From: Yuukianura sp. NJ FZ-2021
Lineage: Eukaryota
Assembly: GCA_046563655.1 (NCBI GenBank)
Contig: CM102286.1
Coordinates: 14,942,001 to 15,006,000 of the forward strand
Reading direction: 5' to 3'
Length of the DNA: 64,000 bases
The position numbers and the translations under genes are program-made. The first letter of the stretch is position 1, and each line of letters opens with the position of its first letter. The notes under the pieces are model-generated. The model did not search any database. It worked only from the letters and a program-made list of their open reading frames with translations, and was not told the origin of the DNA. Positions 6,244 to 62,333 of this stretch are shown piece by piece.

Positions 6244-7063
6244 TTAGCATTTGCAACCAACGGAGCACTTTGATCCCTCTGCGTCTCCGCAGTTGCAAGT
6301 TACTGTGCAGCAGTCGGATTTTCCAGCATCTCCGCAGTTGCGAGATACTGTGCAGACACACGGTTTTCCAGCATCTCCGCACTTACAAGTTACCTCGCAG
6401 CATTTTTCAGCATCTCCGCACTTACAAGATACTGTCAACGTGCAGCAGTCGGGTTTTCCAGCATCTTCACACTTGCAAGTTACTGTGAAGACGCAGCATT
6501 CCGGTTTTCCAGCATCTCCGCATTTGCAAGATACTGTCGCTGTGCAGCAGTCGGAATTATCTCCGCACTTGGAAGTTGTCACCGTGCAGCAATCCGATTT
6601 TCCAGCATCTCCGCACTTGGAAGTTGTCACTGTGCAGCAGTCGGACTTTCCAGCATCTCCGCCCTTGCAAGTTATAACGCAGCAGTCGCATTTCTCAGCA
6701 TCTCCGCACTTGCAAGATACTGTGAAGACGCAGCATTTTCCAGCATCTCCTCGCTTGCCGGATACTGTCAACACACAGCAGTCGGATTTTCCAGCATTTC
6801 CGCACTTGCAGGCTACTGTTATTTTGCAGCAGTCGGATTTTCCAGTTGCTTCACACGATTGAGCAGTTGTGTTTTCTGTAAATGGAAAAAAGTTACAATG
6901 GTGCTAGGAATTTAGAAAATTCGTAAAAAAAAAAACTTGAAAAGCAGTGTTGTAGAAAGGCAAATTTTGAAAAGAAGAGTTGAAAAAAGGCAAATTTAAA
7001 AAAAGAACAATTTTAAGAAATAACATTTTGAAAAGTTGACTTACTTTGGCAGCAGGACGACAT
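6244..7063 (-). CDS. Long repeat-built metallothionein-like Cys-rich protein (~216 aa)
   Basis: Exon 1 7063-7045 (MSSCCQ, gtaagt donor) splices in frame to exon 2 6875-6244. About 12 repeats of C-K-C-G-D-A-G-K-S-D-C-C-x-V-T, C-terminal GCKC, almost no aromatic residues, MREs upstream. Confidence 0.85.
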
Positions 7064-22217: not shown

Positions 22218-24139
<1,922 letters not shown>

Positions 24140-24421
24140 CGAGACTGGAAATAATTAATTGTTCAATTAGTCGATTAATTGCTCAATTAATCGATTAATT
24201 CCCCCGGGACTTGCCACTAGTAGTGGCTACAGAGTTGAAAATCTGATTTTTTTATACCTTTTATGCTACAGTATTTAAAAAAACTAACTTTTTTGTAGTT
24301 GTACCGCGACAATTTTTAAATTAAAACGTTGCCTGGGTTACAGTATTTGTTGCAATAATGCGATTTAGAAATTTTAAATTTTCGCGGGTCGTCGGTGGTC
24401 GGACTGACCGAAATCCAAATC

Positions 24422-25968
24422 ATGGCTGGACGTTCAAGTAAAAAACTGTTTTGTATCAAGTACCTTTGTTGTTTATGCATTGAACTTCCGCAGCATAAGA
24501 CACTTTTCCGGTACGACATGATTGAAGAGCTGGACTCAGCTGTCCAGGAACTCTATGACCAAGAAAACTCGGAATCTTTTCTTAAAAAGTACTTAACTCC
24601 CGGAGTGTACAACACTATGAAGTATCGACAAACCTACGAAGGAAACACACTGCTCGAAGTCATTATCTCAGGAACGAAGAATCCCGACAGTCTCTTTGGC
24701 GTCTACGCTCCAGATCCCGAATGTTACCGAACGTTTGGAGAGCTCATGTACCCCATCATATGTGCCATCCACTTCCTACCGAACATTGTGTCTCATCCAC
24801 GCAAAATCCGGTTCGGACCGTCCGACTTCCTCACATTTCTGGACATGGAAGATCGATATGTCAAATCCATCCGATTCGAACTTTCGCGGAACATTCTCGG
24901 ACACAAGTTTATTCCATCCATGACCAAAGTGGAGTTACAAAATCTGCAGGGGATTCTGTCAGCCCATTTTCAAAGTTTCAAAAGGTCGGACTTGCATGGT
25001 CGTTACGTTCGGTACAAAGGTTTGGAGGAACACACGGAAAAAGTGCTGACGAACCTTGGTCTCATGTTTCCAGCAACTGACAAGTTCCTGGAAGATGGAC
25101 TTGGACGAAAGTTCTGGCCAATGGGTCGTGGAATCTTCATTCCAGGCAAGGTTCCTTGACAACCGAATTGTAATCCCTACAACAGGTTGTCCAATGACGC
25201 AATCTTCTGCACCAATCCCATTTACATTACATGCAAAAGATTACCATTTAAAGACAGATTTGCTATTTTCAAACAAATTTTAAAGGTTCCAGTTATTAGA
25301 CAACCTGGTGTAGAAAAAGTGTTTATTTGTTTACGAACCTTGATTCCAGGGGCCATGGACTTTGCCATTTGGGTCAACGTTGAAGATCACCTCAAGTTAG
25401 TTGCTTCAGAACGATCTGGAGATTTCAAAAAGTGTTACGAACGATTCATTCAACGTAAGAAATTAAAAAAAGGAATCGATTAATTGAGTTGGTGACTAAG
25501 ATTTTTGTAATTTCAGTACACAAGAAGCTTCATCGTCGATTCAAGTTTCATTTTGATGAGCATTTGGGCTATGTCAATGTTTGTCCAAGTAACCTTGGAA
25601 CAGGAGTTCACGCTGAAATTGAGTTAGAGTTGCCAATACTCCAGCGTCATCCAGAACTGATTCAAAAGATTTGCAACGAGTATTGGTTGTCTACGCATGG
25701 ACATGGAGGAGAACACTCCAGCATGACTCCAGAGTCAACATTTTTCATCCGCACAACTCGAGCTCTTGGAATTGACGAGTACAACACGGCCATGCCAGTT
25801 TATGAAGGAGCCTTGGAATTACTCGTGACGGAGCAGCGATTCTCCAAGGAGCTGAGAAGACTGCAAATGGAAGGAGCTGGACTCGATTCGGTAGGCCTTA
25901 ATCTGTTCCCAAAAGACGCAAAAATCAAACCAGCTCATCCTTCAAAACATGTCCATTTGGCAATGTAA
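24422..25968 (+). CDS. Divergent arginine/phosphagen kinase-like protein
   Basis: SFLKKYLTP, GVYAPDPECY, FWPMGRGIF, WVNVEDH, HLGYVNVCPSNLGTG, GGEHS. Introns at 25146-25349 and ~25455-25516. Confidence 0.85.
25147..25342. mobile_element. MITE with CAAGGTTC/GAACCTTG termini and perfect 8-bp TSD (ATTCCAGG), forming an entire intron
   Basis: TSD at 25139-25146 and 25343-25350. Subterminal inverted repeat CTACAACAGGTTGTCCAATGAC / GTTATTAGACAACCTGGTGTAG. Related copy at 46338-46558. Confidence 0.85.
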
Positions 25969-26072
25969 AAGTGGAATAAATACTTTCTACCCTAATGATT
26001 ACAGTGTTCAATGTTTGTCTATAAAATTTTTTAGTTTAATGATTTATGCTTGACAGCTTATCAATGAATGAC

Positions 26073-27110
26073 TTAAGTGTAGGTTAGGAACTCTGGATCC
26101 ATATGCCCAGCTTCAGAAAGTGAACGAAGGACGACACGACCGCTGGGTGTGATGCTCAGTCTTGTGATGCTTCCATTTCCCAGAGTTAGACGAAGCCAAC
26201 CTTCAGCTGGAAACTGGAGGGCTCTGTAAATAAGTAATTTGATTTTTGAAAATTAATTGCTTTCAAATTCAAAGTAAAAATACTGGTGGTTATGGCTTTA
26301 CCTGCAAACAAAGTATCGAATAAGATTGGCGTGACAGACTATTATCTCGTGGGAATCTTCAGTTTGATCAACATCAGCTCGGTGAATGTACTTTCTAAAG
26401 GCAGCTTCGATACGAGGTCCTTCCATGAAAAATTCCTAAAAAGTCCAAATCTTGTCATTTCTTTGTAGGAATCAGCATATATTAAGCTATTTGCTTACGT
26501 ATTGCTCAGGATTCCAGTGGGAAACTGGAGGTTCTGGGGGAATAGGAGGTCCTTCTCGTAGAATTGGATCTTGAGTGAACTTGACACCGCCCATCTGAGC
26601 TGAAATGTTATCAGCAGTTTCCATGGCTCTGGTCATGTTGGAAACGTAGAAGTGCGTGAAAGTAATCCCAAGTTGAGCCAGCCGTTTGCCAGTGAGTTTG
26701 GATTGTTCGTGTCCTATTCTTGTCAACTTCCGATCAGACTCTTCCTCAGCCTCAATTTCATATTGTCCGTGACGGATTAAATAAATGTGACGAGTGGCAG
26801 TGACTTTCGAGCAGGGTTTCCCATCTTCTTCGCTTTTATTTTTACTTGGTTTCTTGAGGCTGTAAGGCTCTCGTCTAGAAATAAAAGGTAAAGGTATAAG
26901 AAAACAGCCAAAAGTAGTAAATGTTAATCGTTATTCTTAAATTCCTGACTTATCCCAGTTGTAGTCCCATTTGGTAGACGGAACGTAGAACTGCAAACCG
27001 GCGCCGGGGGCATCGACCGTTGCACAATTTGCAACAATTGTGTATCCACCCAGAAATCCAGCCCCGACGTACCCCGTCAATTTAATTGCACGAACGAAGA
27101 AGCCGGTCAT
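26073..27110 (-). CDS. Pgam5: Mitochondrial Ser/Thr phosphatase PGAM5
   Basis: N-terminal TM segment, [72 protein letters not shown]. Confidence 0.93.
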
Positions 27111-30357: not shown

Positions 30358-31323
30358 ATGAGCTTGGAGAAGATGGAACTCGGAAACTCGCCGATAGATG
30401 GCGCTGATACCGAAATTCTGTTTCACGGCATTCCGATTTCTCAGTATTCCCTTTCGGAAACTCAAATTGTCCAGAATCTGGACTCTCCTGATTGGCTGCT
30501 GCGCAAACTCCTCTTCTTCGGCAGTGCTATTGCGTCAATCAGAGATTTAGAACACCTTGTTCCTGGTCCAATTGCAAATACAGTTTTCGGATCCCTCGTA
30601 CTTCTCGTCCGTGAATTTTACAAGTTAGACGAATTCCAAATTCGCTCAATTCTGACAAATCCGGGGATTAGTCGGATCCGACATTTAGTCATTTCAAATT
30701 GTGGTTCAGCCGAGTATTTTCTAGAAGCTTTCTACGCTGCTCGCATAATTTCTGGCGAAATTCTTCTGGAAGAGTTTCCTTATTATGAAAACTACCAACT
30801 TCTAATGTCATTTGAATCTAAATGTCTCCAAGCTTACATCGGAAGTTCCAAATACCGGGAAATTTCAAATGTTGCGTTCATCGGTTCAGGGCCACTTCCT
30901 CTGTCTTCAATTGAGCTGCTCCAGCATTTACCCCGAGGGGCAAAGGTCATGAACTTTGACCTCTCCGATGAAGCCATTGCTCTTGGAGAATCTATCGTCC
31001 GACTACAAAATCTCTCTCATCGCATCTCATTTTCAAATGCTGCGGCACTCGAAATCCAAGATTTGAAGCATGTTGATGTTGTCTATTTAGCAGCTCTCGC
31101 TGGTGGCTCCAATTTCGAAAAACGCCAAATTACGGAACATTTACACAAAATTATGAAACCGGGATCTGTGCTGGTTGCAAGAAGTGCGAGTGGGCTAAGA
31201 TCTTTCATCTATGAAAAACTAACGGAATCTGATTTTGGCAAATTCAAATCTTTCCGCCATTTTGATCCCACGAACAAAGTCATCATCAACTCAATTGCAG
31301 TCGGAATGAAACTGGATTTTTAA
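30358..31323 (+). CDS. Nicotianamine synthase-like protein (intronless CDS, probable 5'UTR intron 30247-30345)
   Basis: Motifs FPYYENYQLL..FE, VAFIGSGPLPLSSI, DVVYLAALAG, K..I..HL.K.MKPGSVLVARSASGLRSFIY, VINS, all typical of the NAS family. Confidence 0.88.
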   Translation: MSLEKMELGNSPIDGADTEILFHGIPISQYSLSETQIVQNLDSPDWLLRKLLFFGSAIASIRDLEHLVPGPIANTVFGSLVLLVREFYKLDEFQIRSILTNPGISRIRHLVISNCGSAEYFLEAFYAARIISGEILLEEFPYYENYQLLMSFESKCLQAYIGSSKYREISNVAFIGSGPLPLSSIELLQHLPRGAKVMNFDLSDEAIALGESIVRLQNLSHRISFSNAAALEIQDLKHVDVVYLAALAGGSNFEKRQITEHLHKIMKPGSVLVARSASGLRSFIYEKLTESDFGKFKSFRHFDPTNKVIINSIAVGMKLDF

Positions 31324-45200: not shown

Positions 45201-45282
45201 TGGCAACGGTGAGGTTCGAACTCACGCCTCCGAAGAGACCAGTGCCTAAAACTGGCGCCTTAGTCCACTCGGCCACGTTACC
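45201..45282 (-). tRNA. tRNA-Leu (anticodon TAG)
   Basis: GGTAACGTGGCCGAGTGGACTAAGGCGCCAGTTTTAGGCACTGGTCTCTTCGGAGGCGTGAGTTCGAACCTCACCGTTGCCA forms a cloverleaf with a long variable arm; oligo-T terminator downstream. Confidence 0.93.

Positions 45283-46277: not shown

Positions 46278-62333
<16,056 letters not shown>

Follow-up and report, generated by a model that had tools for sequence, protein, structure and literature searches.

A MITE in an arginine-kinase-like gene, very probably spliced out exactly as a GC..AG intron

Introduction

The origin of new spliceosomal introns is an old question to which transposon insertion is now the leading answer, and animal cases are few. As described in PMC9860276, PMC12130899 and PMC11282704, Introners are DNA transposons of the type with terminal inverted repeats (TIRs) that create introns in Micromonas, Aureococcus, dinoflagellates and others. 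In the first two of these sources, what defines an Introner family is the presence of many similar introns spread over different genes of the same genome. PMC9860276 surveyed 835 animal and land-plant genomes and found Introners in no more than two groups of animals, to which PMC12130899 adds a sea urchin as an Introner-bearing animal.

The locus described here raises this question for a single gene. Within a window of 64,000 nucleotides, by which we mean the whole stretch of DNA that was analysed, the reading frame of an arginine-kinase-like gene is interrupted by a short element flanked by a target-site duplication (TSD), and a sequence-only reading of the window had proposed that the insertion created an intron. 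Is the element removed from the transcript exactly, and is the intron new? Our answer is that a MITE, probably of hAT type, inserted in an arginine-kinase-like exon and is very likely spliced out exactly as a GC..AG intron. We found no published account of this case; the supplementary species lists of PMC9860276 and PMC12130899 were outside the scope of that search.

Results

The interrupted gene and its reading frame

Judged by its domain matches, the host gene is an ATP:guanido phosphotransferase in which the N-terminal and the C-terminal catalytic domains are both matched (Table 1). Exon 1 was set to begin at the first ATG of the open frame, a presumed start codon, and it ends after base 1 of a Gly codon (phase 1). 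Left unspliced, the frame meets a stop at 25157-25159, 12 nt into the element (...GIFIPGKVP and then the stop) and ahead of the catalytic domain. With 25146-25349 and 25455-25516 excised, a 1281-nt frame of 426 open codons runs to a single terminal stop, in agreement with the claim of the sequence-only reading that removal of the first interval restores the coding frame.

An exon of the upstream gene is identical at 62 of 63 residues to CDK8 chains of the Protein Data Bank, and a WNK kinase with a CCTL2 domain lies further upstream of CDK8. These neighbours mark the host as an animal. Within the C-terminal portion of CDK8 (ORF 23789-24139), a long glutamine-coding repeat occupies 23894-23994, where the contigs of all sequencing runs break.

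Table 1. Positions of the gene, the candidate intron and the MITE copies in the window
Feature	Position	Strand	Description and basis
Coding exon 1, ATP:guanido phosphotransferase (arginine-kinase-like)	24422..25145	+	ORF; PF02807 (1.1e-23); X2 contigs 24434-25138
TSD, left copy, ATTCCAGG	25139..25146	+	Final G would be intron base 1
Intron, 204 nt, GC..AG (very probable)	25146..25349	+	Last base of the left TSD, whole MITE, first 7 bases of the right TSD
MITE (copy 1)	25147..25342	.	196 bp, without coding capacity; sequence, repeat search, contig loose ends
TSD, right copy, ATTCCAGG	25343..25350	+	Source of the CAG acceptor; final G would open exon 2
Coding exon 2	25350..25454	+	X2 contig record 11 spans 25343-25454; PF00217 (1.8e-06)
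Intron, 62 nt, GT..AG	25455..25516	+	Skipped in X2 contig; position conserved in L001
Coding exon 3, to the stop codon	25517..25968	+	ORF; PF00217 (2.5e-19)
MITE copy 2, 221 bp	46338..46558	+	Two-piece alignment to copy 1 (BLAST against the window)
MITE copy 3, diverged, 208 bp	47949..48156	-	Termini and subterminal repeats common to the family, interior different

The element and its duplicated target

The terminal inverted repeats of the element match at 8 of 8 positions; they are CAAGGTTC at 25147-25154 and, at 25335-25342, its reverse complement GAACCTTG. A repeat search extended them imperfectly to 16 nt at 81% (25147-25162 / 25327-25342), found a subterminal inverted repeat of 22 nt at 86% (25177-25198 / 25292-25313), and returned the target-site duplication as a perfect direct repeat of 8 bp (8/8). 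The sequence-only reading had described a 196-bp element with TIR termini and a perfect 8-bp TSD, and both the sequence and the repeat search showed this description to be exact to the base. Folded as RNA, the element segment pairs its ends at -55.7 kcal/mol (z = -2.59), with 3 of 200 shuffles equally stable.

We also scanned the 64-kb window for 8-mers resembling CAAGGTTC and GAACCTTG, with at most 1 mismatch each and a spacing of 80-600 nt. The scan gave 14 pairs, and matching 8-bp flanks were present only at 25147-25342 (8/8) and 46338-46558 (7/8), while the remaining 12 pairs had a flank agreement of 0-5 of 8. Since the flank match is almost confined to the studied pair, the element and its duplication are not a chance pattern.

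These features suggest the following mechanism. A non-autonomous cut-and-paste transposon, the 196-bp MITE, would have inserted into the arginine-kinase-like coding exon at ATTCCAGG and duplicated 8 bp. With CAG|G at the end of the target and CAAGG at the start of the element, the left junction would become CAG|GCAAGG, a GC-type 5' splice site, and the right copy of the duplication would provide the ...TTCCAG|G 3' splice site. The spliceosome would then excise 25146-25349. As this interval consists of the element together with a single copy of the duplication, the mRNA would return to its pre-insertion sequence and the protein would be unchanged.

A high-copy MITE family

The contigs of four public runs (X1, X2, X3 and X5) were placed on 23800-26800, where X1, X3 and X5 behave as DNA. 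For X1 alone, 883 contig records were placed on this stretch, the majority of them on the element. Summed contig depth over the element was 56,504 in X1, 9,770 in X3 and 1,140 in X5, against about 200, 65.6 and 3-4 over the flanks. These ratios of ~150-300x in the three DNA runs are not copy numbers, and we read them merely as hundreds of similar copies. Loose contig ends fall exactly at 25147 (82 in X1, 74 in X3 and 38 in X5) and exactly at 25342 (23 each in X1 and X3); counts one base outside were 16, 8 and 4 at 25146 in X1, X3 and X5, and 6 and 3 at 25343 in X3 and X5. The pile-up of loose ends at 25147 and 25342 identifies these positions as the termini of the mobile unit. The family is a high-copy MITE: it is short and non-coding, with TIRs, a TSD of fixed length and many copies. 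A search for copies elsewhere had been proposed as a check in the sequence-only reading, and the contigs that diverge exactly at these two positions answer it at least in part.

Two further copies lie in the window (Table 1). Copy 2 aligns with copy 1 at 81% over 139 nt and at 78% over 50 nt, and its flanks, AAGGTAAC at 46330-46337 and AAGGTAAG at 46559-46566, form a 7/8 duplication of the same 8-bp length. The same flanks resemble a duplicated, donor-like 5' splice site (AAG|GTAAG). No coding exon is evident around copy 2 (46330-46566), and the flanks of copy 3 agree at 3 of 8 positions only. The stretch that holds copies 2 and 3 has no ORF of more than 102 codons.

We compared the flanks of the other copies with the target preference of hAT elements. 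The plurality sequence is GTTTTAAC in the right flank and ..TAAAAC / ..TTTAAAC in the left flank, with an agreement of just 0.41-0.48 on an AT-rich background. The T and the A of nTnnnnAn, at positions 2 and 7, are both present in this weak consensus; the studied copy (ATTCCAGG) has just the T, and copy 2 just the A. No transposase family match was obtained among the 9 long ORFs scanned in the window. Target-site duplications of 8 bp are also made by other superfamilies. From the 8-bp TSD and the flank consensus we assign the element, with moderate confidence, as hAT-like.

A joined, transcript-like form in run X2

All five listed runs, X2 among them, are marked 'DNA?', and no RNA run is on record. 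Record 11 of X2 (785 letters, depth 90) follows 24539-25138 and continues at 25343-25454, skipping 204 nt, and its last 73 letters resume at 25517, a joint from 25454 to 25517 that skips a 62-nt GT..AG intron. Record 13 skips 26224-26301 and 26435-26497, both with CT..AC ends, corresponding to GT..AG introns of a minus-strand histidine-phosphatase gene. In total, 4 of the 4 introns in the 23800-26800 stretch are absent from X2 contigs. Upstream of the gene, in the bin 24305-24405, X2 has a depth of 1.96, and downstream, in the bins over 25921-26122, a depth of about 8, whereas in X1 and X3 the depth is flat over these bins and the contigs run through the introns. Because X2 is without all four introns and its depth falls outside the gene, we took this run to be RNA-derived, and this is the weakest link of the chain that leads to splicing.

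The joint between 25138 and 25343 is present in one contig only, and 8 letters at the joint fit either side, which makes nine cuts compatible with the contig. Standard ends are found in one of these nine equivalent cuts, GC..AG at 25146-25349, with the donor CAG|GCAAGG and the acceptor ...GATTCCAG|G. U12-type and other non-canonical ends were also considered, and no known pair occurs among the other eight. We infer that GC..AG at 25146-25349 is the actual cut among the nine indistinguishable ones; contigs are blind to the exact cut, as they are to rare variants and to the share of unspliced transcript.

The sequence-only reading had equated the 204-nt intron with the 196-bp element plus one 8-bp TSD copy, and this arithmetic holds in the sequence as well as in the 204 nt skipped by the X2 contig. 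The RNA junction that it had offered as a check, 25145|25350, falls within the 8-nt ambiguity of the observed joint, and the splice sites that it had named, a GC donor across the TSD/TIR junction and a CAG acceptor from the second TSD, are those of the sole standard cut. The alternative sites that it had listed (GT at 25151 with an internal acceptor) differ from the form seen in X2.

Is there an allele without the element?

The joined form could have another source. If the insertion were an unspliced null or a polymorphism, the element-free transcript would come from an empty allele and the filled transcripts would be lost to nonsense-mediated decay, a fate consistent with the stop 12 nt into the element, which would make unspliced transcripts decay targets. 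The sample does hold more than one haplotype, as X2 shows both forms at 24508, 24511 and 24538. X1 and X3 differ from each other at these three sites and at 25848 and 25852, among others, and many sites across 24053-26535 distinguish sample S1 from the window, so at least two haplotypes exist besides the assembled one.

Contrary to what an empty allele would predict, every haplotype seen carries the insertion, in the window assembly and in the X1 and X3 contigs alike. In X1, record 4 (24361-25234) passes from the exon into the element on the left and record 5 (25294-25667) does so on the right, as do records 14 (23995-25234) and 20 (25295-26800), respectively, in X3; the left junction is thus crossed unbroken in two runs that represent different haplotypes. 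In X5, which comes from another study and bears another organism label, record 26 (25304-25695) bridges the right junction and no contig among those listed bridges the left one. The empty-site joint from 25138 to 25343 was found in 0 of the contigs listed for X1, X3 and X5. In addition, the variants of the X2 contig that lie nearest the joint, 25003 C and 25108 C, are the same as in the element-bearing DNA contigs. Contigs may drop variants, and an empty allele at low frequency could escape them, so some residual weight is left to this explanation, which we regard as improbable.

It is more improbable still that X2 is really DNA and that the joined form is a processed retrocopy or cDNA carry-over. 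The run is marked 'DNA?', and a joined form in a DNA run would exist as DNA. However, two neighbouring genes on opposite strands both lack their introns in X2 (4 of 4 skipped), X2 has very little depth in the bins that border the gene, and X1 and X3, from the same sample as X2, have none of these joints. A retrocopy would itself still record a spliced mRNA.

An intron-free orthologue and the direction of change

In a search of 5.8 billion proteins, the top-ranking relative of exon 1 was P0001 (57% identity), a gene call on the metagenome contig L001; the protein search returned two relatives at 132-422 aa and none at 423-2000 aa. L001 is syntenic with the window, with CDK8 upstream in the same orientation (L001 357-2410 against 22218-24135 of the window, with protein matches too). 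The DNA of L001 reads straight across the homologous codons of the insertion site without an intron, and its next intron, after the ...IQ codons, sits where the window has 25455-25516. Aligned with the protein of L001, the spliced protein of the window is identical to it in 245 of 440 columns, and no gap occurs from ~180 residues before the site to ~150 after it. A search for the element in L001 gave chance-level matches only, of 18 nt or less.

Because L001 lacks an intron at the site and keeps the neighbouring one, the comparison of the two sequences indicates that the intron at 25146-25349 is a gain and not a loss in the orthologue. An orthologue uninterrupted at this position had been put forward in the sequence-only reading as a check, and L001, syntenic and with the adjacent intron conserved, is such an orthologue. 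The least probable account is that the intron is old and that the MITE inserted into it or replaced it: MITEs are often found within introns and copy 2 is flanked by the donor-like AAG|GTAAG, but the 204 nt consist of the element and one TSD copy and nothing else, and the orthologue is uninterrupted at the site with its adjacent intron conserved, so an older intron is dismissed.

The two proteins also differ in the catalytic motif, which reads CPSNLGT in the window (25590-25610) and SPANIGT in L001 (about 3670). We take the cysteine of the window motif to be the reactive one of phosphagen kinases. If it is, kinase activity may be absent from the L001 orthologue, and perhaps from the divergent clade as a whole.

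Which insertions would be excisable?

Under the geometry of this family, exact excision requires a duplication that ends in AGG (GC donor) or that contains AGGT or AGGC. Of the 65,536 possible 8-mers, 3,564 (5.4%) satisfy this rule; the coding sequence studied here contains 1,274 8-mers, of which 29 do so. The consensus target of the family is AT-rich, without a splice signal, and fails the rule. Applied to copy 2 (46330-46566), the rule predicts exact removal, with GT..AG ends at shift 3. Of the three window copies, one forms an intron and two are in ORF-poor DNA. Since the consensus target has no splice sites and the other window copies lie in ORF-poor DNA, fortuitous intronisation, in which the target happened to end in CAG|G, is more likely than a specialised Introner.

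Other features of the window

A single-exon ORF of 321 aa at 30358-31320 (+) matches nicotianamine synthase (PF03059, 7.6e-49). In the atlas, the clusters closest to it come from plants, fungi, bacteria and archaea. Such a gene is unusual in the neighbourhood of animal genes; it may have been transferred, or it may represent a rare animal NAS. At 6244-6915 (both strands), a minus-strand ORF of about 219 aa is composed of cysteine-rich repeats of the form CKCGDAGKSDCC; a Pfam search of this ORF gave no match. The sole Rfam matches in the window are two tRNA genes, at 45201-45282 (-, 54.2 bits) and 56243-56312 (+, 31.9 bits), the first of them about 1 kb upstream of MITE copy 2.

Discussion

Exonic DNA transposons are known to be spliced out elsewhere. 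Ds (hAT) in maize exons and Tc1 in C. elegans exons are removed from the pre-mRNA by the spliceosome, mostly imprecisely and via cryptic sites inside the element. The element described here shares with Ds and Tc1 the removal of an exonic DNA transposon by splicing and differs from them in that the removal is exact.

The studied intron resembles Introners more closely. As in those systems, a non-autonomous element with TIRs and a TSD makes up the whole intron and is absent in the orthologue, the splice signals are split between the TSD and the element end, and the length of the mRNA is unchanged. The TSD provides the G of the donor as well as the AG of the acceptor; the contribution of the element is limited to donor positions +2 to +6. 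In PMC9860276, splice sites that both come wholly or partly from the TSD are one Introner variant among several. Unlike Introners, one intron is seen here and the family consensus flanks have no splice signal. Held against the features by which Introners are recognised, the element equals the whole intron, the frame is kept (the RNA status of X2 being our reading of that run) and the element is absent in a syntenic orthologue. The element works like an introner; we do not class the family as one.

Among animals, a parallel is the tunicate Fritillaria borealis, in which MITE-derived introns have mostly AG-AC or AG-AT ends and need an altered spliceosome (Henriet et al. 2019, as reported in PMC11282704). 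By that account, the two cases share an animal host and MITEs with TIRs and TSDs that turned into species-specific introns. They differ in their intron ends, which here are GC..AG for the studied intron and GT..AG for the 3 others with transcript support in the stretch. GC-AG introner introns, as PMC11282704 describes them (see also bioRxiv 10.1101/2020.10.14.339549), are typical of dinoflagellates (Polarella, Symbiodinium) on a genome-wide scale. The present intron is like these in that its GC donor is formed at the junction of target and element; in contrast, the examples in PMC11282704 and PMC9860276 have protist hosts and short TSDs of 3-5 bp. With hAT elements such as Hermes, for which PMC10368747 gives the target preference nTnnnnAn, the family shares an 8-bp TSD and, in the weak flank consensus of other copies, T2 and A7. 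It differs from Hermes in that no transposase or autonomous partner was seen here and ATTCCAGG fits only the T.

The locus is a well-supported new example of a known mechanism of intron gain. In one place it shows the target, the duplication, a donor built at the junction, exact removal in a transcript-like contig and an intron-free orthologue. It also yields a testable rule, that ~5% of random 8-bp targets would make the element instantly spliceable, which predicts exonic insertions genome-wide. The finding would be of greater importance if the family were a recurrent source of introns throughout the genome. A tentative proposal, which we consider rather unlikely on present evidence, is that this hAT-like MITE family actively generates introns in its animal host. 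If it were true, the CAAGG end would make a GC donor wherever the 8-bp duplication ends in AGG, and hundreds of copies in a compact, gene-dense genome would give dozens of recent, lineage-specific introns. There would then be one more animal lineage with Introners, and a simple, predictable rule for the survival of exonic insertions.
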